Shown piece by piece: positions 31,885-50,127 of a DNA stretch of 64,000 nucleotides. The DNA is from Clostridia bacterium. GTDB lineage: Bacteria > Bacillota > Clostridia > TANB77 > UBA1234. The notes below the pieces were generated by a model. The model did no database searches. It was not told where the DNA came from and saw nothing but the letters and a program-made list of their open reading frames with translations. The position numbers were made by a program, and so were the translations under genes. The DNA lies in assembly GCA_017462965.1 (NCBI GenBank), contig JAFTQC010000032.1, positions 138,026-202,025 on the forward strand, given 5' to 3'. The first letter of the stretch is position 1. Each line of letters starts with the position of its first letter.

Positions 31885-32175
31885 TTATCAAGAGGGACGC
31901 CCCTTTTTGAAAAAAAATTCATCAAGAGGGACACTCCTTGATTAAATTGATTAGTATAAGAAGAAAGTATTCCTTTCAAGCTTTAAACAGAATATTTATA
32001 TTACATATATGATTTAATACAAATGAGAAATTAGCAACAAAAACAATACTTTTTGTATTGAATAAAATTAGTTGAAGTAAGCTAAAAAAGTGACTTTTAC
32101 TGATAAATATTTTTTCTCAAAAAGGGCTGTCCCTTTTGATGAATTTTTTCTCAAAAAGGGGCGTCCCTCTTGATA
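31885..32175. repeat. Cluster of H1 hairpins (caagagggacgcccctttt) plus a degenerate ~40 bp fragment of the MITE core (aatgagaaattagcaacaaaaacaatactttttgtattg) at about 32022-32060.
   Basis: By eye against the cores of copies A and B. Confidence 0.55.
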
Positions 32176-32332
32176 ATTTTTTGTAAAAAATGGTATATTT
32201 GTATGCTTTTGAAATATGTATATTGGGTGAAAAACTTGCAAATGAGCTTGGTTAATTGTAGAATAATGATGGATATTGTCGACTTAAAGATTGATTTAGT
32301 TGATGGATATTAGTTTGGAGGAAATTAAGATT

Positions 32333-35300
32333 ATGAAAAAAGTGTTAAATGTTGGTTTAGACATTGGTTCAACAACGGTTAAGGTTGTTGTTTTAGATGA
32401 AAATGAAAAAGTTTTGTATTCATCATATAGAAGACATTTTTCTGATACTAAAACTGCGGTGTATAATCTTTTAGTTGAGGTTGTTCAGAAATATAAGGAT
32501 TATTCGTACAAGGTTTGTTTTACTGGTTCAGGAAGTATGTCTATTGCTAAAGTTTTAAATTGTAAGTTTATTCAAGAAGTTATTGCATGTAAAAATGCGG
32601 TTAAAAAGTATATTCCGGAGACGGATGTTGCAATAGAGCTTGGTGGAGAAGATGCGAAAATAATTTATTTTGATAAGTTTATTGAACAAAGAATGAATGG
32701 TAGTTGTGCTGGTGGTACAGGTGCTTTCTTGGATCAAATGGCTACGCTTTTAAATACGGATCCATCTGGTTTAAATGAACTTGCAAAGGATTTTAAGATT
32801 ATTTATCCGATTGCATCTAGATGTGGTGTTTTTGCTAAAACGGATGTACAACCACTTATAAATGAAGGTGCAAGTCGTGCAGATCTTGCAGTTTCTATTT
32901 TACAAGCCGTTGTAAATCAAACTATTAGTGGACTTGCTTGCGGTAGACCTATTAGAGGGAAGGTTGCTTTCCTTGGCGGACCACTTACATATTTGCCTGA
33001 ACTTAGAAATAGATTTATTGCTACTTTAAATATGAAAGATGAAGATGTAATTGTTCCAGAAGAAGGACATTTGCTTGTAGCTAAAGGAGCTGCGCTTGAT
33101 GCTGTTTCTGAAGCGGAAATTTCTTCAGCAAAGTTTTCTGAATATCTTGAAATTTTAAAAGAGTATAAAGGTGATGAAAACCCAGCGTTACCACCATTGT
33201 TTAATACAATTGCGGAACTATCTGAATTTAAAAAGAGACATGCTAAGTTTAAAGCTCCAAGAGCAAAGTTAGAAGGGTATTCTGGAAATGTATTTCTTGG
33301 AATTGATGCGGGTTCTACAACGTCAAAACTTGTTTTGATTGATGATAGGGGATGCATTTTGTACTCTGCATACAGAAGTAATGAGGGTAGTCCTTTGAAT
33401 ACAGTTTCAGAGATGATTAAGGATGTTTATCAATCATTACCAAAGAAGGCTAAAATTAAACTTGTTGGTACAACTGGTTATGGAGAAAATCTAATAAAGA
33501 CAGCTATTAATGCAGATATAAGCGAAATTGAAACAATTGCTCATACGAGAGCTGCAAATCATTTTATGCCAAATGTTGAGTCTATCGTAGACATAGGCGG
33601 TCAAGACATGAAGTATATAAGACTTAAAGAAAGTACAATTGATAACATTATGCTTAATGAAGCTTGTTCATCAGGATGTGGATCTTTCTTACAAACTTTT
33701 GCTAGTAATTTAAACATTTCATTAGATGATTTTGTTAGAGAGGCAATTCTTGCGAAGACCCCTGTTGATTTGGGTTCAAGATGTACAGTTTTCATGAATT
33801 CAAAGATTAAACAGGCTCAAAAAGAAGGTGCGAATGTAGGCGATATTTCTGCGGGACTTTCTTATTCAGTTGTAAAAAATGCACTTCAAAAAGTTATGAA
33901 GATTCGTGATACAAGCAAGCTTGGTGACCATATAATTGTTCAAGGTGGAACATTTTCGAATGATGCAGTTTTAAGAGCTTTTGAATTGATAGTAGGGAAA
34001 AATGTTATAAGACCAGATATATCTGGACTTATGGGTGCATATGGAATGGCGCTTCTTTGTAAAGATAAATATAAATCTTCAAAGAGAATTGCTGACGAAA
34101 AATCTAGTATGCTTTCTTATGATGAACTTAAGAATTTAACTTTCAAAACTTCGCATGTTAGATGTCAAAATTGCGAGAATCATTGTTTACTTTCAATTAA
34201 CAAATTTAGCAATGGTAAGAGTTTAGTTACTGGTAACAGATGTGAAAAGGGTGCAGGTAATACTACATCTAAGAACAACAATTCGTTACCTAACTTATAT
34301 AAATACAAATATGAAAGAACTTTCGACTATGTTCCGTTAAAGGAAGAGGATGCTAAAAGAGGAAAGATTGGTATCCCAAGGGTTCTTAATATGTATGAGA
34401 ATTATCCATTCTGGCATACGTTTTTTACAGAGCTTAAATTTAGTGTTGTTCTTTCTGAAAAGACAAGTAGAAAAACTTATGAAAAAGGCATGGAATCGAT
34501 ACCTTCAGAGTCAGTATGTTATCCTGCAAAGATTACGCATGGACATATAATGAGTTTAATTGATCAAGGTGTAGATACAATTTTCTATCCATGTATTCCT
34601 TTTGAAAGAATAGAGCAAAAGAATGCGGAGAATCACTATAATTGTCCGATTGTAATTTCGTATTCTGAAGTTATTAAAAATAATGTTGAAGACTTGTCTG
34701 AGAAGAAAATTAAATTTATGAATCCATTCTTGCCTTTTGAAACTAAAGCGTTAGTTGAGGTAATATACGGACTTGAAGAGTTTAAAGAATATAATTTGAA
34801 GAAATCGGAGATTGCTAGAGCGGCGAAAAAAGCGCAAGAGGAATATAATAGATATAGAAATGATATTCAGAAGAAGGGTGAAGAAACCTTAAAATATTTG
34901 GAAGAAAACAATATTAAAGGCATTGTTTTATCTGGAAGACCATATCACATTGACGGAGAAATTAATCATGGTATTGATACGATGATTACGGGACTTGGAA
35001 TGGCAGTACTTACTGAAGATTCAGTTGCACATTTGAGTGAACTTGAAAGACCGCTTAGAGTTGTTGATCAATGGATGTATCATTCAAGACTATATGCTGC
35101 AGCTGATTTAGTTGGAAGAAAAGATAATTTAGAGCTTGTTCAACTTAATTCATTTGGATGTGGAATTGATGCTGTTACAACAGATCAAGTTGAAGAAATT
35201 TTAACAAGCTTTGGCAAGATGTATACACTTATAAAAATTGATGAGGTAAATAATCTTGGTGCAATTAGAATTAGAATAAGATCGCTTCTTGCTGCTATGA

Positions 35301-36646
35301 AAAAGCGTGAAGAAGAAGGAACTTGTCCAATTTCTAAGGCGCCTACATATACAGTTAATAAAGTTCCTTTCACCAAGAAAATGAAAGAAACTCATACGAT
35401 TCTTTGTCCACAGCTTTCACCAGTTCATTTTGAATTTTTGGAAGCAGCTATGGATAGCTCAGGATATAAATTAAAATTACTTCGCGAATGCACAGAAAAA
35501 ACTGTTGAAGTTGGATTGAAATATGTTAATAACGATGCATGTTATCCATCGCTTCTTGTAATTGGACAATTAATCGAAGCATTGCAATCAGGCGAGTATG
35601 ATTTGGATACTACTGCTGTAATTATTTCACAAACTGGCGGCGGATGTAGAGCTACAAACTACATAGGATTCTTAAGAAAAGCACTTGCTGATGCAGGATT
35701 CCCAAATGTTCCTGTAATATCATTTAACTTTGCAGGACTTGAAAAGATGCCAGGCTTCAAGATTACGTTAAGTATGGCCTCAAAGCTTATAAGAGCCGTT
35801 ATTTTCGGAGATTTATTAAGCAGACTATTATTACGCAATCGTCCATATGAAATGAATAAAGGCGAATCTAACGCGTTATATGAGAAGTGGGTAAAACGCG
35901 GAAGAGATGTAATTAGAAGTGGTCATGGTGAAGAATATAAAACAGCAATCCAAGAGATGGTTAATGACTTTGATAAGATAAAGATTACAAATGACGTTAA
36001 ACCTAAAGTTGGTGTTGTTGGAGAAATATTGATTAAATATCATCCTTTTGGAAATCACAAAGTTGTGGAACAACTTGAAGCAGAAGGTGCAGAAGTTGTA
36101 CTTCCTGATTTTATGGGATTCATTAAATTCGTTGCTACAAGTAAAATTAACATTAGTGACCTTATGAAAATAGGAAAATTCAAAGGATATATTTCAAGAA
36201 AAGTAATTGACTTACTTGATGCGCAAGAAGTATATGTAAGAGAAGTTTTGGAAAAAGCTAAAAAATCATATAGAGAGCCATGTGACATTTGGAAACTTAG
36301 AGATAGAGTTGGGGAAATTTTATCGATAGGTAACCAAACAGGTGAAGGTTGGTTCTTGACAGCAGAAATGCTAGAACTTATAAAAGATGATGTTCCAAAC
36401 ATTGTTTGTGTTCAACCATTCGCGTGCCTTCCAAACCATGTTGTTGGTAAAGGTGTTATAAAATCAATAAGAGAGCATTATCCAAAAGCAAACATTGTTG
36501 CGGTTGACTATGATCCAGGTGCAAGTGAAGCAAACCAAACAAATCGTATAAAACTGCTTATGTCAGTAGCCAGGGATCAAATGGAGGAAACAGCTTCAAA
36601 CAAGAAAAAAGCAAAAGGAAAAACTAAAATTAAAGCAGCAAAATAA
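32333..36646 (+). CDS. Giant fused CoA-substrate-specific enzyme activase (two BadF/BcrA/HgdC-type ATPase modules) and 2-hydroxyacyl-CoA dehydratase HgdB-like component, about 1437 aa.
   Basis: Repeated GIDAGSTTSK and LDIGSTTVK ASKHA motifs, and a Cys-rich middle segment. RBS ggagga before the ATG at 32333. Confidence 0.75.
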   Translation: MKKVLNVGLDIGSTTVKVVVLDENEKVLYSSYRRHFSDTKTAVYNLLVEVVQKYKDYSYKVCFTGSGSMSIAKVLNCKFIQEVIACKNAVKKYIPETDVAIELGGEDAKIIYFDKFIEQRMNGSCAGGTGAFLDQMATLLNTDPSGLNELAKDFKIIYPIASRCGVFAKTDVQPLINEGASRADLAVSILQAVVNQTISGLACGRPIRGKVAFLGGPLTYLPELRNRFIATLNMKDEDVIVPEEGHLLVAKGAALDAVSEAEISSAKFSEYLEILKEYKGDENPALPPLFNTIAELSEFKKRHAKFKAPRAKLEGYSGNVFLGIDAGSTTSKLVLIDDRGCILYSAYRSNEGSPLNTVSEMIKDVYQSLPKKAKIKLVGTTGYGENLIKTAINADISEIETIAHTRAANHFMPNVESIVDIGGQDMKYIRLKESTIDNIMLNEACSSGCGSFLQTFASNLNISLDDFVREAILAKTPVDLGSRCTVFMNSKIKQAQKEGANVGDISAGLSYSVVKNALQKVMKIRDTSKLGDHIIVQGGTFSNDAVLRAFELIVGKNVIRPDISGLMGAYGMALLCKDKYKSSKRIADEKSSMLSYDELKNLTFKTSHVRCQNCENHCLLSINKFSNGKSLVTGNRCEKGAGNTTSKNNNSLPNLYKYKYERTFDYVPLKEEDAKRGKIGIPRVLNMYENYPFWHTFFTELKFSVVLSEKTSRKTYEKGMESIPSESVCYPAKITHGHIMSLIDQGVDTIFYPCIPFERIEQKNAENHYNCPIVISYSEVIKNNVEDLSEKKIKFMNPFLPFETKALVEVIYGLEEFKEYNLKKSEIARAAKKAQEEYNRYRNDIQKKGEETLKYLEENNIKGIVLSGRPYHIDGEINHGIDTMITGLGMAVLTEDSVAHLSELERPLRVVDQWMYHSRLYAAADLVGRKDNLELVQLNSFGCGIDAVTTDQVEEILTSFGKMYTLIKIDEVNNLGAIRIRIRSLLAAMKKREEEGTCPISKAPTYTVNKVPFTKKMKETHTILCPQLSPVHFEFLEAAMDSSGYKLKLLRECTEKTVEVGLKYVNNDACYPSLLVIGQLIEALQSGEYDLDTTAVIISQTGGGCRATNYIGFLRKALADAGFPNVPVISFNFAGLEKMPGFKITLSMASKLIRAVIFGDLLSRLLLRNRPYEMNKGESNALYEKWVKRGRDVIRSGHGEEYKTAIQEMVNDFDKIKITNDVKPKVGVVGEILIKYHPFGNHKVVEQLEAEGAEVVLPDFMGFIKFVATSKINISDLMKIGKFKGYISRKVIDLLDAQEVYVREVLEKAKKSYREPCDIWKLRDRVGEILSIGNQTGEGWFLTAEMLELIKDDVPNIVCVQPFACLPNHVVGKGVIKSIREHYPKANIVAVDYDPGASEANQTNRIKLLMSVARDQMEETASNKKKAKGKTKIKAAK

Positions 36647-38277: not shown

Positions 38278-38923
38278 CTAGTGACTTATAAGAAAAGTTA
38301 AGAAAAGCATATGCAGAGGATAAAAAGCATAAAATAGATATTTTATATTTTTCCCTTTTTGACCATTATATAGGCATATTGGAATTAATGCTAATATAGC
38401 TGGAATGTTGAAGCCACTGCTACACACGTGGCAGTAGAATAGCAATAATATTGCATATCCAATAGAATGAAGGAATTTGGAATCCTTAAATATATAGAAA
38501 ATGATGATTGCAAGGAATCCATAGAAAGAATAATCCATTGGAACTATCCATGAGATGCCAAATAAAATAAATAAAAGTGGCATTTTAATTGCAGGATGCT
38601 TGATTTTGTCGATAACATATAGAGCTAATAATCCAGTTGTTAAGGTAGCACCTACATTTAGTTTGAATGCTGTTCCTGGTGCAGCAGCATTTAAAAATAA
38701 ATCATATGGTATTTGCGAAATTATTGTAAAAATAAGCATTCTAATAATATATTTTTCTTTACTTTTTGTATGTGAAAATCCATTTGCGATTTGAAATGCA
38801 AAAATAGGGAAGGCAAGTCTACCGAATCTGCCTAAAAATAGGATATTCTTTAAAAAGTCCAAATCCTATGTGATCTATAAACATTGTAATAATTGCAAGA
38901 ATTTTTAAACCAAATGAAGTCAT
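38278..38923 (-). pseudogene. TraX-family membrane protein with an apparent frameshift between the N-terminal 34 codons (MTSFGLKILAIITMFIDHIGFG...) and the main ORF (..GRLAFPIFAFQIANGF..).
   Basis: ATG at 38923 with RBS ggagg. That frame stops at 38819-38821, and the main frame restarts with TTG at 38862. Confidence 0.55.
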
Positions 38924-39033
38924 AGTCAAGTACCTCCTAACATAGTATTTTAGCACTTGCTGAAGAAGAATAGAAGAATATTATTTTATTTTTATATAAA
39001 GAAAGAGAGCCTTGTAAGGCTCTCTTTTTGTGG

Positions 39034-39660
39034 TCAGTCTACCATCTCCTGCTGATAGGACTCTTCAATGCACTGAACAAATTCCTCGTTCAGCATGAAG
39101 ATGTTGTCCTTTGCCCAGCAGAAATCGCCGTGCGAAGCGAAGCGGTAGAAGATTCCTTCAGCGGTAGGAATCCGGAAGGCAAGATGATTGTTAATCATCG
39201 CTACATCCAGTTCCACCTGGAATTTTTCCTCAAACTGCTTAAATGCTTCAGCGATATTTACGTAGCGTTCGTCGCCATCGATGATATACGCCACGTCTTC
39301 AGCGACTTGCTCTTCACAGACCAAGGATTCGTCACGACGATCGTACTTGTCTTTCAACGCAAACGCGGTGGACGGCTTAAGTCCGATGCAGTTCGCGACG
39401 TTTCTGCTTTCATCGTAAATGAAGAACAGGTCATCTTTACGGATAAGTTCCGTGTGGAAGCTTTCCGCGTCGCTGTTATAGCAGCAAAGGAGCAGGTGGC
39501 CATGAGCGTCGAGCTCCAAGGACCAGTCTTCGTCGCCGAAGATGTTTTTCATGAGTTCATCCCCAAAGGGAAATTCCTCGCTTGCCAGGGCAGCAGTGGG
39601 GGTGAAGGTCAGAGTCGCGGTCAGGATTGCGGTCAGGATCATAGCAAAAAACTTCTTCAT
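39034..39660 (-). CDS. 208-aa secreted hypothetical protein with a signal peptide, about 48-50% GC.
   Basis: RBS aagaggag before the ATG. Promoter candidate TTGACA-17-TGgTAAACT at about 39854-39890 (minus), giving a ~190 nt leader. Confidence 0.55.
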   Translation of the reverse strand: MKKFFAMILTAILTATLTFTPTAALASEEFPFGDELMKNIFGDEDWSLELDAHGHLLLCCYNSDAESFHTELIRKDDLFFIYDESRNVANCIGLKPSTAFALKDKYDRRDESLVCEEQVAEDVAYIIDGDERYVNIAEAFKQFEEKFQVELDVAMINNHLAFRIPTAEGIFYRFASHGDFCWAKDNIFMLNEEFVQCIEESYQQEMVD

Positions 39661-39894
39661 GATAATTCTCCTCTTGATGATGTAGTTGAGCGGGATACGG
39701 TCTATTGGTCAATGTTGCGTCATCTCATAAGGCAACTCCTTCTTGATACGTACGACTGAGCACGCTTTGGTTGCATGAAAAAAGCATGCATACCGCAGAG
39801 AACATTAAGTTGAGTCAGTCAATCTCACAAAAGTTCCTGCGTGTTGTTAAAAAACACAATTATAGTTTACCACTTTTTGTATATTATGTCAACG

Positions 39895-40002: not shown

Positions 40003-41811
40003 GTGACAAATCAAGAAAATATTAGGAATTTTTGTATAATTGCACATATAGACCATGGAAAATCAACTCTAGCGGATAGATTGATAGAGCTTACAGGAGT
40101 TTTAACTAAGCGTGAAATGCAAGAGCAAGTCCTTGATAATATGGATTTAGAGCGTGAAAGAGGCATTACAATTAAGCTTCAATCTGTTAGAACTACTTAT
40201 AAAGCAAAAGATGGAAAAGAATATATATTGAATTTAATAGATACACCTGGTCATGTTGACTTTACATATGAGGTTTCAAGAAGTTTGGCTGCTTGTGAGG
40301 GGGCTATTTTAGTCGTTGACGCCTCTCAAGGTATTGAAGCACAGACCTTGGCTAATGTTTATTTGGCTTTAGATAATAACCTTGAAATCATTCCGGTTCT
40401 AAATAAAATTGACCTTCCGAGTGCTAATCCGGAGATGGTTATTGAGGAAATTGAAAATGTTATAGGTATTGAAGCTCAGGATGCTCCTAGAGTTTCTGCA
40501 AAAACAGGCTTAAATATTGACCAAGTTTTGGAAAAGGTAGTTACAGGGATTCCTGCACCTTCTGGAGATGTTAATGCACCAACAAAAGCACTTATATTTG
40601 ATTCTTATTATGATAATTATAAAGGTGCGGTTGCTTATATTAGAGTAAAAGAAGGAAGAATTAAGGTTGGCGATGAAATCAAATTTATGGCTACGAATAA
40701 AACATATACGGTTACTGAAGTTGGATATTTTGGTGCGGGCACTTATGTTCCAACAGAAGAACTTACAGCTGGTGAAGTTGGATATGTTGCTGCAAGTATA
40801 AAAAATGTATCAGATATCAACGTTGGTGATACTATTACTACAAAGACTAATTCTGCAGAGGAGCCTCTACCTGGCTACAAGAAGATAATGCCTATGGTTT
40901 ACTGTGGTATTTATCCTGCTGATGGTAGTGATTATGAGGATTTGAAGGCTGCTTTAGAAAAACTATCGCTAAATGATGCTTCATTATTTTGGGAACCAGA
41001 AACATCTGTTGCATTAGGATTTGGATTTAGATGTGGTTTCCTTGGACTTCTTCATATGGAAATTATCCAAGAACGTATCGATAGAGAGTATGATTTGAAC
41101 GTTATCACAACGTCTCCAAGTGTTATTTACAAGGTTATTAAAACTGATGGAGAAAAATTTGATTTATACAATCCTACTGAACTTCCATCGATGCAAGAAG
41201 TTTCAAAAATGGAAGAACCGATTGTTAAAGCTGATATAATGCTTCCAAAACAATACGTTGGGAATATTATGGAGCTTTGTCAAGATAGACGTGGTATTTA
41301 TAAGGACATGAAATACTTGGATGAAACAAGAGTTATCTTATCTTATGAAATGCCACTTAATGAGATTATTTATGATTTCTTTGATGCACTTAAATCAAGG
41401 ACAAAGGGGTATGCATCTTTTGATTACGAGATTATAGGTTATAGAGAATCTGATCTTGTTAAACTTGATATTTTACTTAATGGAGATTTGATTGATGCAT
41501 TTTCTATGATTGTACATAAAGATAAAGCATATGCTCGTGGAAGAAAAATGGCTGAAAAGCTTAAGACAACTATTCCAAGACAAATGTTTGAAATACCTAT
41601 TCAAGCTGCCATTGGTGGTAAAGTTATTGCAAGAGAAACTATTTCAGCAATGAGAAAAGACGTACTTGCGAAATGTTATGGTGGAGATATTACTCGTAAA
41701 AAGAAATTATTAGAGAAACAAAAGGAAGGAAAGAAGAAGATGAGACAGCTTGGTACGGTTGAAGTTCCACAAGAGGCGTTCTTATCAATTCTTAAATTGG
41801 ATGAAGAATAA
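40003..41811 (+). CDS. lepA: Elongation factor 4.
   Basis: G-domain AHIDHGKST and DTPGHVDF, plus the LepA C-terminal domain. GTG start. Confidence 0.9.
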
Positions 41812-43743: not shown

Positions 43744-45033
43744 GTGTTTAAAAACGTGTCATTAATAATTTCGTTGCTTTTATCAGGAACAATGCTTTTA
43801 TCAGGATGTTCTATAGAAGAGCAACATCCAAATCTAGAGGTATTAAATCCAGAAGTAGTTAACCCAATAATTGAACATGTTAGTGGAGAAGAAGCAGAAA
43901 TAGGTAATTTAAATGAAAAAACTATCGGTTTTAATGTATTTGATTCAAGTTTAATTTCTTTTATTGATATAGAAAAATCAAAAGAAAATTATATGATTTC
44001 TCCATTATCTTTTAAATGCGCTTTAGGTTTAGCTGTGTCTGGTGCAAGTGGAGATACAGCTAAAGAGCTATATGGTGTTTTAGGTTATGATGATTTTTCG
44101 GATTTTGAAAGTTTGATGAGACGCATAAATGATTTAAAAGTACAATTTGATTCGTATAACGAGAGAATACAAGGTTATGAATGGATTGAAGAAAAAGAAA
44201 AGGAAGGTATGAAGATTCATTTTGATGTAGCGAATTCAGTGTGGGATGTTTCAGGCAAACTAAAAGAAGATTATATAGAAGAAGTAAAATCAAAAATTAA
44301 TGCTGAGGCTAAAAATACTTCTATTAATACAGTTGTAGAGGAAGTCAACACATGGGTAAATGAGAAAACAAGAGGATTGATTCCTCAGCTTTTAAGTAAT
44401 GTCCCTCCTGATTTAGGTGCAGTTTTAGTTAATACTGTTTATTTAAAATCAAGCTGGTTTGAGGAATTTAGTGTTACTGCAAATCCTATGAAATTCACTG
44501 ATGTTGATAATAATGTAGTTGAGAAAGAAAGTATAAATAAAACAGATAAATTTGCTTATTATAAAGATGATGATTCAGAGTTAGTTATAGTTCCTTTAAA
44601 TGGTGGAGCAAATATTGCATATGTTTTGGGTTCTAGAGAGAATATTTCAGAAAAAATAAATAAGGCTGAAAAGAAGAAAGAAATTTATGTAGAAGTACCT
44701 AAAATTGAGATGGAAACTACATTCGACAAAAAGGAATTAGTAAATTATTTGCAAGCAAATGGAGTAAAAGAAGCATTTTTAGAAACTGCTGATTTTGATA
44801 AAATGTCAGAAGATATGTTTATAGGAGATATTATTCAAAAAACAAAAATTAAAACAGATGAAAAAGGACTTGAAGCCGCTGCCGCAACAGCAATAATAAT
44901 GAAAGATAATGCAATGTTTATGGAACAAGAAGAACCAATTAAATTCATATGTGATAAACCATTTACTTTTTATATTTATTCTGAAATAGATGGTGTGAAA
45001 GATTTAATGTTCTTTGGAAACTATGTAAAATAA
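43744..45033 (+). CDS. Serpin-family protease inhibitor that is a predicted lipoprotein (lipobox LLSGC).
   Basis: The serpin C-terminal signature FICDKPFTFYIY is present. GTG start. Confidence 0.8.
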   Translation: MFKNVSLIISLLLSGTMLLSGCSIEEQHPNLEVLNPEVVNPIIEHVSGEEAEIGNLNEKTIGFNVFDSSLISFIDIEKSKENYMISPLSFKCALGLAVSGASGDTAKELYGVLGYDDFSDFESLMRRINDLKVQFDSYNERIQGYEWIEEKEKEGMKIHFDVANSVWDVSGKLKEDYIEEVKSKINAEAKNTSINTVVEEVNTWVNEKTRGLIPQLLSNVPPDLGAVLVNTVYLKSSWFEEFSVTANPMKFTDVDNNVVEKESINKTDKFAYYKDDDSELVIVPLNGGANIAYVLGSRENISEKINKAEKKKEIYVEVPKIEMETTFDKKELVNYLQANGVKEAFLETADFDKMSEDMFIGDIIQKTKIKTDEKGLEAAAATAIIMKDNAMFMEQEEPIKFICDKPFTFYIYSEIDGVKDLMFFGNYVK

Positions 45034-45186
45034 TAATTTTAAAATTGGAAATTAGTATTATGCTAATTTCTAATTTTTTTACAAAATTTCTGGCATAATT
45101 ATTCAAAAATCACATTTAATACATGAATTTTTCACAAAAAATATATAAAATAAGGACTAATGAAACTTAAATAAGGAGGAGTTTTT

Positions 45187-46746
45187 TTGAAAAAGGTTAG
45201 CATATTATTTATTTTTGTAATGTTATTTACTATGAGTGCTGTTTTTGCGGAGCCAAATCAAGCTTTTTATGATGTTGTTTTAAATGATAATGTCACTACA
45301 GTAAATGGTGAGAATATATCTACAGATTTGACTAAAGACATCTATTGGTCAGAGAATATGAATAATGGTGGAACAAGTGATGAGGCTATTGTTGCTAATG
45401 TAAAAGTTGATGATGTTATTAATATTAAGGCGCCAGGAACATATAGAATTACTGGAACACTTACAAGCGGACAAATTGCTATTGATACAAATAGTATAGA
45501 TGGTGATGTTGTTATTATTCTTGCTGGTGCGAGTATTACGTGTAATGATGGTCCCGCTATTGTTGCTTATAATGTGAATACGAAAACAGCTGATAATTGC
45601 AATGTAACTATTAGAACGGAGAAAAATACTGAAAGTTATGTTTATGGCACTAGAGTAAAGACTAGTGTAATAGGATGGCCTGATCAAGAAAAGATTGTAT
45701 ACAATATTGAAAAAGGTACTAATGATGAGGGACAATATTTTGAACAGTATAAGTATGACGGTGCGATTAGTTCAGATATTTCTTTGACTTTTGACGGTGA
45801 AGGTACTTTGAAATTTGAATCTGGTAGAGAGGGTATCGAGGTTAAAGGTGACATTATCATTAATAGTGGTAATTATATTTTTAATACAGATGAAGATGGA
45901 ATTAATGCTTGTTTAGATCGTGAGAGTGTTATTGAAATCAACGGTGGTAACATTTTGGTTGCAACTAGGAAAGATGGTCCTCAAGGTGATGGCATAGATT
46001 CAAATGGATATTTGTATATCAATGGTGGTAATATATATTCTTTTGCAAATCCAACTACAGGTGATAGTGGAATAGATTCTGATTTAGGTATTTTCATCAA
46101 TGGCGGTAATGTAGTTGCTACAGGTAATATGTATGACATGATTGAAACTGAGTCAAAGCAAGATTTTATTTTGATTCCGTTTGGTGAAAAAATTAAAGAG
46201 GGAACATTAATAACTGTGGTAAATGAAAAGGATGAGCCTGTTATCGCCTTTGAAACAGAAAGAGACTATACGATTTTGACAATTAGTAATCCTGAGTTAA
46301 GAAGAGGCGTTTATTCAATTTACAAAGGTGGAACAATTGAAGGAGAGGCAACAAACGGGTTGTATTCAAATATAACTTCCTATACAAAAGGAGAAAAAAT
46401 TGACGTAACAGTGTATACAAAAGAAGATGAATATAGAGGAAGAGGTCCTGGTGGCATGATGATGCCAAATAATTTCGTTAGAGAGTTAAATATTGGATTA
46501 GTTGTTTTACTTGGCGTAGTTGCTGCTGTGTGTGTTGTATTTGCTATAGTACTAATTAAGAAGGAAAAGGGAAGAGTAGCTAACTTGTTTTTAGGTATGA
46601 TTGCCGGTGGAGCAATTATTGCGATTATATTTATGATTATGGGCACTGCAAGAGTAAATAATCCATATGATATGTTTAAAGGAGAAAGAAATTTCGGCGA
46701 TTTTTCTAGCGAAAGACCAACAATGAATCAAAATCAAAGATTTTAA
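45187..46746 (+). CDS. Secreted right-handed beta-helix repeat protein (Cthe_2159 / carbohydrate-binding-like) with C-terminal TM anchors.
   Basis: Repeated GDGIDSNGYLYINGGN and GDSGIDSDLGIFINGGN turns. TTG start after ggagga. Confidence 0.6.
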   Translation: MKKVSILFIFVMLFTMSAVFAEPNQAFYDVVLNDNVTTVNGENISTDLTKDIYWSENMNNGGTSDEAIVANVKVDDVINIKAPGTYRITGTLTSGQIAIDTNSIDGDVVIILAGASITCNDGPAIVAYNVNTKTADNCNVTIRTEKNTESYVYGTRVKTSVIGWPDQEKIVYNIEKGTNDEGQYFEQYKYDGAISSDISLTFDGEGTLKFESGREGIEVKGDIIINSGNYIFNTDEDGINACLDRESVIEINGGNILVATRKDGPQGDGIDSNGYLYINGGNIYSFANPTTGDSGIDSDLGIFINGGNVVATGNMYDMIETESKQDFILIPFGEKIKEGTLITVVNEKDEPVIAFETERDYTILTISNPELRRGVYSIYKGGTIEGEATNGLYSNITSYTKGEKIDVTVYTKEDEYRGRGPGGMMMPNNFVRELNIGLVVLLGVVAAVCVVFAIVLIKKEKGRVANLFLGMIAGGAIIAIIFMIMGTARVNNPYDMFKGERNFGDFSSERPTMNQNQRF

Positions 46747-46853
46747 AAATCGTCCGTTGGGGACGTCCATTAAATGGACGATTTGGTAACAAAAAGGCGC
46801 CCTTTTGGGGCGTCTCTTTTTTCTACTGTGTAAGATGATACAGTAGAGGGTGA

Positions 46854-47462
46854 TCAGTTGTCGTATTCCTCACAGGCAGCGTCGATGATTTTCGAAGAAT
46901 CGACACCTGCTTCATCGCAGAGCTGCTGGAAGAAACGGGCGTCGTCTTCACCTTCGTCATAGGCTGCATCATTGAGCGAATCGAGGTGTTCACGTTCGAC
47001 CATCGCATTGTAATGGGGGTCGTTCTTGATTTTCTCATGAATCTCGTGTCCCCAGGGATTTTCCTGCATTTTCATGTTGTACAGAAGCCCAGTAAGGACG
47101 TAGACATCGTTCGTCGCCAGGAGAATGGATGCCGCTTTCTGGCAAAGATTCTCATTCTGAGAGAGAATGCTTTGAACAGCTCCGTTTTTCTTCTGAGCAA
47201 AAACAATCTGAGCTTTTTCACAGATTGCCTTGTTTTCAGCCAGAGTGTCCCACAGAAACTCGAAGTCGCTGTTTGTCGCGATACGAATCTGTAATTGGGG
47301 AATGATGCAGGGATTGCTTGCCAATGCTTCAATGAAGCAATTTTCATCGAGCTTCCAAACAGCAAGCTGTTCTTCTTTGGAGAGCTGCTGGGTTGCTACA
47401 TACCGTTCGACATCGGCGGTAGAAGCTTGGTAGAGGAATGCTTCGAACTTTTTCATTTCCAT
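46854..47462 (-). CDS. 202-aa acidic hypothetical protein with higher GC.
   Basis: RBS aaggag. Its minus-strand promoter TTGACA-17-TATAAT lies at plus 47579-47607. Confidence 0.5.
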   Translation of the reverse strand: MEMKKFEAFLYQASTADVERYVATQQLSKEEQLAVWKLDENCFIEALASNPCIIPQLQIRIATNSDFEFLWDTLAENKAICEKAQIVFAQKKNGAVQSILSQNENLCQKAASILLATNDVYVLTGLLYNMKMQENPWGHEIHEKIKNDPHYNAMVEREHLDSLNDAAYDEGEDDARFFQQLCDEAGVDSSKIIDAACEEYDN

Positions 47463-47578
47463 TTTCGTTTTGCTCCTTCTTTTTTGTCTTCATCGCTATT
47501 TAGCATAGCGACTACAGGAAATGATTCTGCAATAGCACGTAAAAGAATGCTACCTTGCAAATTCAGAATCACAAAAAA

Positions 47579-47620
47579 ATTATACCATTGTTTGAATTTT
47601 ATGTCAACTTATGGTATAAT
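47579..47620. promoter_or_regulatory. Back-to-back overlapping divergent sigma-A promoters on a quasi-palindrome. Minus strand: TTGACA-17-TGgTATAAT. Plus strand: TTGAAT-17-TGgTATAAT.
   Basis: The -35 boxes of the two promoters interdigitate (47592-47597 plus, 47602-47607 minus). Confidence 0.55.
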
Positions 47621-47686
47621 GTCTCTGTTGAAGTTCGACTTTCAACGGTATCCAATCAAATAATTTAGAAGGGATGTGAAAACAAG

Positions 47687-48655
47687 GTGGGTAAGAAGCA
47701 ACTGACGTATACCCCACTGAGGCTGGTCGATGAGTACAGCCGGGCTATCCGAGAGTTTGAAAAAGCGCGAGCTTTGAGAACAATTGGTGGAGCCGAAGAT
47801 GAAGTTGGTGCTGCTGTTGAATTCGCTGTACCGCGGATTTACGAGCGAAATGGCATCAAAGGACGCAAGCCTACGAAGGCGGAAGAGGATTTACTTGTTT
47901 ACCAAATCTATGATTATGCAATTGCAACGGTAATTGCATCATATTGGAGCAAGTGTAAGCAGGTGTATACCTTTTCTCGTGATTTCTATGAGATGCTCCT
48001 GGATATGGATGATTTCGATATTGGCTGGTCGCTTTTCGACTATCTGCCGTACGAAGCGTTCTATCTGGAACTCAAGGAACACAAGGAAATTGATGGTGTG
48101 CTTGTAAAGTATACGAAAGGTCCGAGACCTTCGATTCTTTACACTATCTGTGGTAAGAAAGGTAGATTGCTTAACATCAATAGCGGCATTGTGGATCCTC
48201 GTGACAATATCAGCTATAAGAGCTTCTTTGAGACGGAAGTCTTTTGCTCTAAAGCGGATATGAGTGCTCCTTACGTTGTGCTTGTGAGGCAAGTGTTGGC
48301 GTTCACTTTGCAGGCATGCATGTATCTGTGTGCGAAGAATGCAGATATTGAGGAAAATCCTCTCCAGAAGAAGATTTATACTCCGTCCAAAACGATTCGG
48401 AATCGTTTCTCCGAAATTCGCAAGTGGGATGTAGGTGTACGAGTCGTTCGCGAGCATAAGGCTGCACAAGATCTGTCAACGGAAACATCTGATGCACCTG
48501 ATGTATTTCGGCGTAGGCCCCGTCAACATTGGCGCAAAGCCCACTGGCATACCTACTGGGTAGGCAAGGGACGAGCCAAGCGCGAGCTCAAGTTCATCGC
48601 TCCGGTACTGGTGAATGATAACGGTGACGAGATGCCGGTAATTGTTCACGAGTAA
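47687..48655 (+). CDS. 322-aa hypothetical protein, about 55% GC. GTG start.
   Basis: Served by the plus promoter at 47592-47620. CG-rich codons. Confidence 0.5.
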   Translation: MGKKQLTYTPLRLVDEYSRAIREFEKARALRTIGGAEDEVGAAVEFAVPRIYERNGIKGRKPTKAEEDLLVYQIYDYAIATVIASYWSKCKQVYTFSRDFYEMLLDMDDFDIGWSLFDYLPYEAFYLELKEHKEIDGVLVKYTKGPRPSILYTICGKKGRLLNINSGIVDPRDNISYKSFFETEVFCSKADMSAPYVVLVRQVLAFTLQACMYLCAKNADIEENPLQKKIYTPSKTIRNRFSEIRKWDVGVRVVREHKAAQDLSTETSDAPDVFRRRPRQHWRKAHWHTYWVGKGRAKRELKFIAPVLVNDNGDEMPVIVHE

Positions 48656-48727
48656 AGACAACAAAAAAGAGGAAATTTGCTATTGTAGCGGGTTTCCTCT
48701 TTTTCATTTGTTGTAGTACCTCAAAAA

Positions 48728-49960
48728 TTATTTCGTACCTTTCTTTTTAGGAATCGTGAGACGGAGTGGGTAGCGGTAGGTTACGCCTTGAGTGGGATGA
48801 ACTGCGAAGAGTTTCTGGATGGGATAGTTGGCGGTGACGAGACCTTTCATGGAGTAGAGACTGCCACCAGGCCAGCAACCGTTGACGAATTTTTCAGTGG
48901 TGACGCCAGAAAGTTCGGAAGGCACGTGGAAATGTCCGAGTTCAAGGTAATTGTAGCTGAGTCCCATGAGTTCCAAAAGTTCGCGATAGTTCTTAGCAGC
49001 GCGGTCGATACCGTAGTAGGGAATGCCCTGCCAAGAGCGAATATCGTCGCCGTGGAACATCAGGAAATTGAAACCGTAAATCTTGTCGATTTGCCACCAG
49101 GACTTAGTGATTTGCCAGGTGATGCGGTCATAGTTCTTGAGTTCAGACTGCATCCACTTGTATACGATGTAGTCCCAGCTGACGTAGTGCAAGTTTTCAC
49201 CCTTGCTACCGATACGGCCGTGGTTACCGGGAACCGCAACAACGTGGATTTTGTCAAACAGGTGAAGTGCCTTAAGCAAGAAGTCACAAAGCAAATCTTT
49301 GACGCCGATTGCTTGTTCGGTGATTTCGCGGTCGATTTGACGAGTCTGACCTTTGAAGATGTCATATCCCTCAACAATGTCACCAATAAGATGAACATGC
49401 AGCGAAGAGATAGGAGCAACTTGCTTGTGACGAGTGACGATTTCTTCAAGTCCTTTGTAAAGCTGGACAAACTGCTTCTCAAGGATTTCCCAGTTGTATT
49501 CATTGAGACCACCACTTGCTTCGTCGGAGATATAGGTACCAGCCTGAATATCCGAAATCATAAGCACGATGGTTTCTTCAGAGTAGTTGCGGTCGACGTT
49601 AACCTTGAAGGGTTTGATGTCGCGCAAAGGACGATCCTTGATGATATCTTTGATAGAGTCGACGATCATGTCAGTGACAGCAATCTTGGTAAGCAGCTTT
49701 TTGTCGCGTCTTGCGACTTCAGAAGAAATGATGCTGGTACGACGTTCAGAAACTTCATCCTCGAAAGTCTTGGGCGGCGGAGGGTACTCTTCACGCAAAA
49801 AACGTTTTACAGTCCGCGCAGAAGATTCCTTGCCTTTAAAGTTCGGTCCATATTGTTCGTAAACTTTAGAAATGATTTCCTCTTCAGTATGTCCCTCTTC
49901 ATGGAGAATACGTGCAAACTCTCTCCAGGTAATAGTAGGTTCTACCTTCTGATTTCTCAT
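48728..49960 (-). CDS. Calcineurin-like metallophosphoesterase (GDxxE, GNHG, GHxH motifs) with a ~135-aa N-terminal extension. High GC.
   Basis: HLIGDIVEG, VAVPGNHG, MFHGDD and LGHFHVP motifs. RBS gaaggagg. The antisense ORF 48788-50026 is a shadow. Confidence 0.6.
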   Translation of the reverse strand: MRNQKVEPTITWREFARILHEEGHTEEEIISKVYEQYGPNFKGKESSARTVKRFLREEYPPPPKTFEDEVSERRTSIISSEVARRDKKLLTKIAVTDMIVDSIKDIIKDRPLRDIKPFKVNVDRNYSEETIVLMISDIQAGTYISDEASGGLNEYNWEILEKQFVQLYKGLEEIVTRHKQVAPISSLHVHLIGDIVEGYDIFKGQTRQIDREITEQAIGVKDLLCDFLLKALHLFDKIHVVAVPGNHGRIGSKGENLHYVSWDYIVYKWMQSELKNYDRITWQITKSWWQIDKIYGFNFLMFHGDDIRSWQGIPYYGIDRAAKNYRELLELMGLSYNYLELGHFHVPSELSGVTTEKFVNGCWPGGSLYSMKGLVTANYPIQKLFAVHPTQGVTYRYPLRLTIPKKKGTK

Positions 49961-50127
49961 GGTGAATTCCTCCTTCAGAAAACACTGTCGGTTAGGTTAA
50001 AAATAATTCCTTCAACAAAACGATAGCATACCCAAAAAATGAAGTCAAATTACATTCTTGTTACAAAGTATATATTATGATAGTATTTTTATGAGAAAAC
50101 AAAAACTTTTACGAAAGGAGAAATAAA

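Follow-up and report, generated by a model that had tools for sequence, protein, structure and literature searches.

A high-GC patch of 3.2 kb lies between the Cthe_2159/serpin genes and addBA in the window, as the whole 64-kb stretch of DNA analysed is called here. The patch carries three open reading frames (ORFs), designated pA, pB and pC (Table 1). The hairpin between Cthe_2159 and pA forms its left edge, and the intergenic region between pC and addB its right edge. The original prediction had described a foreign, separately transcribed three-gene cluster, the last gene of which encodes a metallophosphoesterase (MPE) next to a DNA end-processing locus, and had suggested a module accessory to defence or DNA repair. 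An ORF check confirmed the positions and strands of all three ORFs.

Table 1. Genes and predicted regulatory features of the high-GC patch (positions refer to the window).
Feature	Position	Strand	Description	Source
Terminator hairpin, GC-rich, bidirectional	46795..46815		Predicted; between convergent Cthe_2159 (+) and pA (-)	Terminator scan, both strands
pA	46854..47462	-	202 aa, acidic (pI 4.4), predicted all-helical, LRV/HEAT-like repeats, acidic C-terminal tail	
Divergent sigma-70-type promoters, interdigitated	47579..47620	pA on -, pB on +	Predicted; 12/12 (pA) and 10/12 (pB) matches	
Leader palindrome GTTGAA-N8-TTCAAC	47627..47646	+	Just 3' of the pB -10	
pB	47687..48655	+	322 aa, GTG start, predicted AcrVA2/FinQ family (Pfam PF26125 'AcrVA2-like')	
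Bidirectional terminator, 19-bp stem	48664..48704		Predicted; common to convergent pB and pC	Inverted repeat I3 and terminator scan
pC	48728..49960	-	410 aa, predicted phage-type MPE, phrog_284 'exonuclease'	
pC-addB intergenic region, AT-rich	49961..50127		Weak back-to-back promoter-like sites, 9/12 matches only	Inferred

Composition, boundaries and transcription of the patch

The GC content amounts to 0.43-0.47 over 47-50 kb compared to ~0.30 in the flanks. Analysis by codon position yielded GC3 values of 0.54, 0.48 and 0.53 for pA, pB and pC, respectively, versus 0.16-0.25 for the flanking genes encoding ScpB, serpin, Cthe_2159, AddB, AddA and MreB, which bears out the foreign composition originally noted. 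Since GC3 is ~0.5 versus ~0.2 and homologs of the patch genes showed the same contrast to their host in every host examined, the patch was probably gained by horizontal transfer and is phage- or plasmid-like in type. The spacer between pA and pB has a host-like GC content of 0.33. High GC3 has been kept although residence appears to have been long (dS ~0.6 between relatives), an observation that is incompletely accounted for.

At the DNA level, the whole patch did not match any of 50,697 phage records. Searches for att repeats or transposon ends, in the form of flanking direct or inverted repeats, yielded only short matches at chance level, and neither a mobility gene nor an empty insertion site was found for the patch. 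An Rfam scan of the 64-kb window detected no RNA family at the gathering threshold, and an NCBIfam search with the patch proteins gave no credible match. The position of the patch is a variable site in one uncultured lineage of gut Clostridia ('Eubacteriales'), because the same flanks enclose three different gene contents, one found in the window, L005 and L015, one in L006-8 and one in L010/L011.

The predicted promoter of pA (- strand, 47607-47579) reads TTGACA-17-TGgTATAAT and that of pB (+ strand, 47592-47620) TTGAAT-17-TGgTATAAT, both with an extended -10. Their -35 regions interdigitate, and the near-perfect symmetry agrees with the symmetric bidirectional promoter proposed earlier for the first two genes. 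AcrVA2-like genes at other loci share the -10 of the pB side as well as the upstream ATTATGTAAA element in conserved form. The leader palindrome was likewise found 5' of pB homologs in L015, L006, L012, L016, L017 and L018, where the neighbouring genes differ, and the changes in L016 preserve G.U pairing. It may serve as an operator or fold into a hairpin in the RNA. Promoter and leader of pB form a cassette that recurs in conserved form at other loci. Separate transcription of the patch genes, as originally suggested, is supported by their own predicted promoters together with the predicted terminator hairpins at 46795-46815 and 48664-48704, both of them bidirectional.

Characteristics of the three proteins

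The AF2 model of pA (pLDDT 56) consists exclusively of helices. Only two close homologs were found among 5.8 billion proteins, both located at the orthologous site. In an exhaustive HMMER search, residues ~24-136 recurred 3-7 times in larger proteins, which show weak matches to LRV, LRV_2, HEAT and DUF2336. Sequence matches to EthR and MglB in the PDB (E>0.2) were rejected as noise. The dN/dS ratio of pA is 0.22 in comparison to L005, the copy in L015 carries an out-of-frame internal deletion, and the gene is absent from L006 and L010. Judged from these comparisons, pA is dispensable and shows the lowest conservation of the three genes.

The middle gene, pB, had been missed in the original prediction and is here identified as a member of the AcrVA2/FinQ family. 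A profile built from 32 pB homologs matched AcrVA2 in the PDB (7CI1) with E=5e-22, aligning profile positions 15-306 with AcrVA2 residues 10-318, and thus over the full length. With pB as single sequence the match to AcrVA2 was E=0.016, and only the C-terminal motif was aligned. According to precomputed annotations, PF26125 is carried by 62/62 pB homologs, including ones 79-83% identical to pB. When pB was run through hmmscan with a Pfam copy that apparently lacks the PF26125 model, no family was returned at E<=1, and the PF26125 label of pB itself is indirect, resting on the homologs of 79-83% identity. No paper naming the label was retrieved in a literature search for 'PF26125'.

In the homolog alignment A1, residues H281, R283, H286 and W87 of pB are invariant, and they correspond to H286, R288, H291 and W79 of AcrVA2, respectively; the motif H281-x-R283...H286 is intact. 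The importance of AcrVA2 H286, R288 and H291 for mRNA down-regulation has been reported by Marino et al. In tblastn searches, residues 202-320 of pB matched loci annotated 'protein FinQ' on plasmids (E 1e-5 to 1e-7), amounting to more than 500 plasmid records with 507 conjugative. pB further matched phrog_6160 (1e-19). Its dN/dS ratio is 0.04; the synonymous sites of pB are saturated, whereas those of pC are not. The alignment of the whole AcrVA2-like family shows a variable N-terminal half followed by a conserved C-terminal half. Faster evolution of the N-terminal half of pB among close relatives was considered and rejected, as dN is similar in both halves. Taken as a whole, the sequence comparisons identify pB as a full-length AcrVA2/FinQ-family protein, and the affinity points to a tool of mobile-element conflict rather than to a DNA-repair accessory. 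The characterised members of this family are AcrVA2, an anti-CRISPR protein, and FinQ, a plasmid-borne factor that inhibits fertility.

Compared to AcrVA2, an anti-CRISPR of a Moraxella bovoculi prophage (PDB 7CI1/7CI2), pB is of nearly the same length (322 versus 323 aa), is homologous over the full-length profile, contains the essential H-x-R...H and the conserved Trp, is encoded by a compositionally foreign gene and belongs to a family with the same division into a variable N-terminal and a conserved C-terminal half. Nevertheless, D89 of AcrVA2 is not conserved, and pB resides in a Clostridia lineage, where it is fixed chromosomally with no accompanying prophage genes and with neither acrVA1 nor aca as neighbour. 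No CRISPR array and no cas gene, including Cas12a, was detected in the 64-kb window, and the target of pB is probably a different one. FinQ, which occurs on IncI/F-like plasmids of enterobacteria and is said to reduce the mRNA levels of genes on a competing element, shares 28-30% identity with pB residues 202-320. However, only the C-terminal third of pB aligns with it, and the two differ in location: FinQ is encoded on conjugative plasmids in Enterobacteriaceae, pB in the chromosome of Clostridia.

pC matched phrog_284 with E=8e-40 (residues 64-392 to profile positions 73-385 of 398) and yielded tblastn matches in 160 phage records; the family comprises more than 575 viral loci. The match to Pfam Metallophos (PF00149) reached 20.8 bits at a cutoff of 21.5. 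The calcineurin-like motifs GDIVEG, GNHG and GHFH described earlier were recovered in an alignment of 41 family sequences as G193-D194-IVEG, G245-N-H-G-R249 and G342-H-F-H345, H303-G-D-D is present as well, and all MPE motifs are invariant or nearly so. Motifs II-V of the dimetal MPE are intact and invariant, whereas in motif I (S-D137-I-Q139-AG) Gln replaces His. The original observation of D-I-Q instead of D-x-H was thus correct, but it reflects a polymorphism of the family, since Q and H both occur at this position among genuine phage members. D-x-Q as the mark of a dead enzyme was rejected, given this alternation and the invariance of the other motifs.

The AF2 model of pC (pLDDT 87) comprises an HTH-like three-helix bundle (residues 12-58), a long helix (66-107) and the MPE core (129-400). 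With the first MPE strand at residue 129, the N-terminal extension, previously estimated at 135 aa, is present with ~128 aa. A Foldseek search against the PDB supported the MPE fold at a probability of 1.0 and listed PolD DP1 first (E 4e-11), followed by LpxH, Vps29 and Mre11, the latter at rank 42 or lower. The nuclease proposed for the cluster is consistent with this MPE fold, which is closest to that of a nuclease. DP1, the small subunit of archaeal PolD and an MPE 3'-5' proofreading exonuclease, is the best match to pC among solved structures, and motifs II-V are shared with DP1 and Mre11. In contrast to these enzymes, pC carries Gln in motif I, has no OB domain and no DP2, Rad50 or SbcC partner, and shows only ~17% identity at a TM score of ~0.44. 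pC does not belong to the DP1 or Mre11 families but shares only the MPE fold used by those nucleases.

Sequence and model together assign pC to the phrog_284 phage family of the MPE superfamily. Its kin include the SPbeta metallophosphoesterase beside YonK, the phiCD211 'exonuclease' and the 'DNA repair nuclease' of Streptomyces phage Dagobah. They share with pC the N-terminal helical domain, the MPE core and a length of ~400 aa; full-length structural matches to phage proteins were found in BFVD (TM 0.6-0.68), and D-x-Q in motif I also occurs in Dagobah and one phage-borne homolog. Identity to characterised phage genomes is nevertheless only 22-28%, and pC stands alone in the chromosome, with no genes for phage replication or packaging in its surroundings. 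The pC kin of phiCD211 and SPbeta-type phages lie just upstream of the terminase; a phmmer comparison of five proteins (two TerL, the phiCD211 portal and two upstream hypotheticals) with 80 viral loci yielded nothing. A literature search retrieved no demonstrated activity among phrog_284 members, and 'yonJ' gave only irrelevant matches.

The dN/dS ratio of pC is 0.016 at a dS of 0.64, close to that of MreB. The pC copies of the window and L015 share 98% identity; recent transfer as an explanation was rejected, as dS is comparable to that of the flanks (0.19-1.23).

Genomic association of the genes and alternative readings

An AcrVA2-like ORF was present within 10 kb of none of 80 viral pC-family loci, and a pC-family ORF accompanied only one of 79 AcrVA2-like genome loci, that one being the orthologous site. 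Homologs of pC with 80% and 62% identity stand alone elsewhere in chromosomes, away from addBA, at a DUF2207-SLH and an AIM24/Lactamase_B site. AcrVA2-like genes elsewhere occur singly or as tandem paralogs, with arrays of 2-3 in related Clostridia. Because of this independent occurrence, pA, pB and pC do not make up a conserved three-gene module, contrary to what had been supposed. The location of pC at addBA is a feature of one narrow lineage and a historical accident of the insertion site. A lineage-specific functional link between pB and pC may nevertheless exist, as the two lie side by side and converge in each of the three arrangements of the lineage and both are strongly constrained. 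Overall, foreign origin, separate transcription and a nuclease-like MPE stand from the original prediction, but not the module, the link to addBA or the match to a defence system.

We consider it likely that the patch is foreign DNA of phage or plasmid type and that its three genes are independent, each transcribed on its own, and do not constitute a single system. A module of pB and pC, with or without pA, in which pB would recognise a target that pC degrades or in which pC would be an effector or toxin under pB, appears very unlikely. Such a module might be argued from the common terminator in all three island variants, the strong purifying selection on both genes and the fact that the mRNA-degrading machinery downstream of AcrVA2 is not known. 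However, co-occurrence does not extend beyond the orthologous site, small ORFs lie between pB and pC in L006, L010 and L011, and the difference in saturation of synonymous sites indicates different histories at the site. Moreover, AcrVA2 works in Pseudomonas aeruginosa from acr-only plasmids with no MPE partner described, and the fold of pC is closest to DNA exonucleases of DP1/Mre11 type. The same fold, constraint at the level of MreB and the divergent orientation of pC and addB, separated by a 167-bp spacer, in the window, L015, L006 and L010 could also be expected of an accessory DNA-end-processing nuclease working or co-regulated with AddAB. We regard this as quite improbable, since the closest homologs outside the lineage are those away from addBA, the family is overwhelmingly phage-borne and the GC3 of pC is foreign. 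In addition, the patch contains no SbcC/Rad50-like or other repair partner, and an SMC-like ATPase (Rad50/SbcC) is also absent next to the solo pC homologs.

An anti-phage or anti-plasmid defence island, with pB acting like FinQ and pC as defence nuclease, would be in line with the inhibition of F-plasmid transfer by the family member FinQ, with fixation of the genes in the chromosome under purifying selection and without a mobile-element backbone, with the tandem paralog arrays in related Clostridia and with the hotspot-like variability of the site. It is unlikely, however, as PADLOC-DB v2 gave credible matches for 0/3 proteins (none for pA or pB, and for pC only a spurious Cas2e at E=0.025), no known defence genes were found in the flanks, and the only protein of the pB family whose mechanism has been characterised acts against defence. 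At the other extreme, the patch might be what is left of a decaying prophage, inert and without present function, as the lack of mobility or structural genes and the frameshift of pA in L015 and its loss from other relatives could suggest. This reading is strongly disfavoured and, in our view, extremely improbable: the dN/dS ratios of pB and pC are low over substantial synonymous divergence, their ORFs and motifs are intact in all relatives, and the predicted promoter is strong and conserved.

Proposed functions and implications

Within the favoured reading of three independent foreign genes, pB would most likely bind one particular protein, plausibly by its nascent N-terminal peptide, via the variable N-terminal half of pB and would then trigger loss of the corresponding mRNA via the conserved C-terminal H-x-R...H domain. 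This mechanism is modelled on AcrVA2, whose inactive mutants in the H-x-R...H residues stay stably bound to the target; for pB itself, family membership and conservation of the motif are the direct findings. The target need not be Cas12a. On the basis of fold and motifs, pC is most likely a metal-dependent DNA exo- or endonuclease, with an HTH-like domain, a coiled-coil-like helix and a DP1/Mre11-like MPE domain in the architecture of a widespread phage family. As both genes are under strong purifying selection in a chromosome without mobility genes, pB and pC would be retained, domesticated or moron-like genes and not decaying remnants; on this pattern of substitution they are maintained genes. 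A further reading, in which AcrVA2/FinQ-like genes of this group of gut Clostridia have been adopted by the host as chromosomal, peptide-directed mRNA silencers against incoming phages or plasmids and the equally constrained pC has been co-opted at the addBA site, possibly as degradative partner, is based on the single or 2-3 tandem copies, the portable promoter/leader cassette and the purifying selection, and we hold it to be rather improbable.

With the nuclease next to AddAB explained by chance placement of the insertion, one misleading candidate for a new defence or repair system drops out. To our knowledge, AcrVA2 represents the only known case of nascent-peptide-directed mRNA destruction in bacteria. 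Most of its ~1,800 relatives sit in genomes without Cas12a. The locus adds a clean case to this family, a chromosomal and strongly constrained Clostridia member with a predicted functional motif that is intact. Its own conserved promoter and leader, together with the paralog arrays in relatives, may be of use in seeking targets other than Cas12a.

Composition and transcription signals of the high-GC genes

The three predicted open reading frames pA, pB and pC, located between Cthe_2159/serpin and addBA, were found with the boundaries and strands originally proposed (see table). The patch has a GC content of 0.43-0.47 compared to ~0.30 in its flanks, and GC3 values of 0.54 (pA), 0.48 (pB) and 0.53 (pC) compared to 0.16-0.25 in six flanking host genes, which bears out the proposal of a foreign cluster. 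Although the patch has long resided in a host whose GC3 is ~0.2, its own GC3 has stayed at ~0.5. Neither an integrase, repeats or an empty site for the patch nor a DNA-level match of the patch to known phages was found. The spacer between pA and pB has a host-like composition (GC 0.33), and the bidirectional promoter proposed for the first two genes resolved into two promoters interdigitating within it. Since predicted bidirectional terminator hairpins lie on either side of the pA-pB gene pair, pA, pB and pC appear to be separate transcription units, consistent with the original prediction.

A fourth foreign-looking ORF (GC 0.46, GC3 0.53 compared to 0.16-0.25 for the host) was observed between a TraX-like gene and lepA. 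It matched no Pfam or PHROG family and showed no relationship to the profiles of pB or pC. Elsewhere, a 34-nt tandem repeat precedes a 1448-aa ORF by ~110 nt.

Features of the window and AcrVA2-like loci of related genomes (positions refer to the window unless a locus is named)
Feature	Position	Strand	Details
Tandem repeat	32109-32190		34 nt, 2.4 copies, 87% match
ORF	32300-36646		1448 aa
TraX-like gene	38278-38862	-	
Foreign-looking ORF	39028-39759	+	243 aa
lepA	40003-41811		
Segment with serpin gene	43744-46746		
Terminator hairpin	46795-46815	both	bidirectional
pA	46854-47462	-	202 aa
pA promoter	pA-pB spacer	-	TTGACA-17-TATAAT, 12/12, extended -10 TG
pB promoter	pA-pB spacer	+	TTGAAT-17-TATAAT, 10/12, extended -10 TG
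pB expression cassette	47600-47680		
pB	47687-48655	+	322 aa, GTG start
Terminator hairpin	48664-48704	both	bidirectional
pC	48728-49960	-	410 aa
AcrVA2-like array or extra copy	L012 7153-8990		
AcrVA2-like array or extra copy	L016 8810-10969		
AcrVA2-like array or extra copy	L017 8816-10966		
AcrVA2-like array or extra copy	L018 7736-10993		
AcrVA2-like array or extra copy	L021		

The AcrVA2-like gene pB

Judged by its sequence, pB, to which the original prediction had assigned no identity, is a protein of the AcrVA2/FinQ family, named after an anti-CRISPR and a plasmid fertility inhibitor. A Pfam scan yielded no match, the PF26125 model ('AcrVA2-like') seemingly being absent from the local Pfam-A copy; precomputed PF26125 matches were present in 62 of 62 pB homologs in a large protein database, and phrog_6160 (function not known) matched at 1e-19. 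A single-sequence PDB search returned AcrVA2 (7CI1) as sole match via the C-terminal motif HWRKAHWHTYWVGKG (E=0.016), and a profile built from 32 family members matched AcrVA2 over its full length (E=5e-22). Residues H281, R283 and H286, corresponding to AcrVA2 H286, R288 and H291, are invariant in the family alignment, as is W87 (AcrVA2 W79). More than 500 plasmid records, 507 of them conjugative, carry finQ-annotated genes that match residues 202-320. The majority fraction across the family was 0.60-0.64 in the C-terminal half compared to 0.32-0.49 in the N-terminal half, which fits a variable recognition part joined to a conserved effector part.

According to Marino et al. (bioRxiv 10.1101/2022.11.29.518452), AcrVA2 binds nascent Cas12a at its N-terminal peptide, leading to loss of the Cas12a mRNA, and requires H286, R288 and H291; ~1,800 orthologs are carried by mobile elements, mostly where Cas12a is absent, and FinQ is a homolog. 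The machinery for mRNA degradation has still not been identified, according to a 2026 review. By analogy with AcrVA2 and FinQ, pB would most likely recognise one specific protein, probably co-translationally, and then lower the mRNA of that protein via its HxR...H domain.

The gene is preceded by a portable expression cassette consisting of ATTATGTAAA-N3-TGnTATAAT, a GTTGAA-N8-TTCAAC palindrome and the conserved ribosome-binding region CAAATAATTTAGAAGGGATGTGAA. The cassette is kept upstream of AcrVA2-like genes at six loci of other genomes (L015, L006, L012, L016, L017 and L018) despite quite different neighbours. As changes within the palindrome in L016 preserve G.U pairing, an RNA hairpin seems somewhat likelier than an operator. 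In related Clostridia, two to three diverged AcrVA2-like paralogs are arranged in tandem at ordinary chromosomal locations, the second paralogs lacking the palindrome; the L015 genome additionally harbours, on a different contig (L021), a second copy that is 39% identical.

The metallophosphoesterase pC and the repeat protein pA

On the basis of sequence matches, pC belongs to a phage metallophosphoesterase (MPE) family. It scored just below the cutoff for Pfam Metallophos (20.8 versus 21.5 bits) and matched phrog_284 'exonuclease' at 8e-40; distant relatives were detected in phage genomes (160) and viral contigs (more than 575), and in phages the gene sits among replication or late genes. All MPE motifs originally noted are present, including D137-I-Q139. 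Motifs II-V are invariant in the family, and motif I reads D-x-Q in the window, in Streptomyces phage Dagobah and in a phage-borne 45% homolog, and D-x-H in phiCD211, the SPbeta type and a protein encoded by a megaphage-like contig of 522 kb. The glutamine is therefore a family polymorphism, and its interpretation as decay is ruled out by this alternation.

A confident AlphaFold2 model (41-sequence alignment, pLDDT 87) comprises an HTH-like three-helix bundle (12-58), a ~40-residue helix (66-107) and the MPE core (129-400). The closest solved structure was the PolD DP1 3'-5' exonuclease (E 4e-11), followed by LpxH, Vps29 and Mre11, and the full-length matches among viral models (TM 0.6-0.68) were phage proteins of ~400-440 aa annotated as 'DNA polymerase II small subunit' or 'metallophosphatase'. 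Judged by its fold and motifs, pC would most likely bind DNA via its predicted N-terminal domain and cut or trim it at the dimetal MPE site. The homolog on the 522-kb contig (L181, the context of protein P0089) is 34% identical and neighbours Cpn10, IF3, a helicase, a D12 methyltransferase and a 3150-aa protein, a gene content that looks like that of a megaphage.

The first gene, pA, encodes a dispensable repeat protein with only 2 close homologs among 5.8 billion proteins. It is acidic (pI 4.4, acidic tail) and predicted with low confidence to be all-helical. An exhaustive HMMER search demonstrated that residues ~24-136 form a repeat recurring 3-7 times in larger proteins, which show weak LRV/LRV_2/HEAT/DUF2336 matches. 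The gene is weakly constrained (dN/dS 0.22 versus L005), in L015 has an internal deletion that shifts the frame, and is missing from L006 and L010/L011. Two homologous proteins of 1000-1265 aa (P0186 and P0195) combine an N-terminal dynamin-like GTPase domain with 5-7 C-terminal copies of the repeat.

Arrangement and history of the three genes

Close relatives have the site in common but differ in gene content. The window, L005 and L015 share the order Cthe_2159-pA-pB-pC-addB; L006-8 carry serpin-TM2-pB-orf90-pC-addB, and L010/L011 carry Cthe_2159, three small ORFs, pB, two to four small ORFs, pC and addB. No annotation was found for the accessory ORFs. Through these three rearrangements of the site, pB and pC stay next to each other. 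Outside this lineage the genes occur apart: pC homologs (80% and 62% identical) were seen singly at two different sites, between ordinary chromosomal genes, and pB homologs (40-73% identical) occur alone or as two or three paralogs in tandem, with no accompanying MPE. Profile searches of ORFs detected an AcrVA2-like gene within 10 kb at none of 80 viral pC-family loci, and a pC-family gene at one of 79 AcrVA2-like genome loci, namely the orthologous one of the closest relative. Such independent occurrence is the outcome that the original prediction itself named as refuting it, and PADLOC gave no credible match for the trio, which is thus not a new system. Apart from their being adjacent in this lineage, there is nothing to connect pB or pC with AddAB in function.

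Both pB and pC are nevertheless alive. Between the window and L015, pC showed a dS of 0.64, within the range of the flanks (0.19-1.23), and a dN/dS of 0.016, close to that of MreB (0.011); pC was thus inherited together with the chromosome, under a constraint like that on a core gene. For pB, dN/dS was ~0.04, and synonymous sites were saturated against every relative, even where those of pC and the flanks were not (pS 0.64-0.85 versus 0.43-0.60 for pC and flanking genes, compared to L015 and L006). These neighbouring genes thus have different histories, which suggests that pB alleles were exchanged, possibly via allelic replacement, or are older than the divergence of the hosts. At synonymous sites the serpin gene upstream of the patch is unusually close to its L005/L015 counterparts (dS 0.13-0.19, compared to 0.6-1.5 for its neighbours), suggesting recent exchange of that segment.

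Overall, the observation underlying the original prediction was confirmed and its interpretation only partly supported: the locus holds new members of two known phage/plasmid gene families and one dispensable repeat protein. It is chiefly of use as a source of a clean, chromosomal AcrVA2-like gene with which to hunt for targets.
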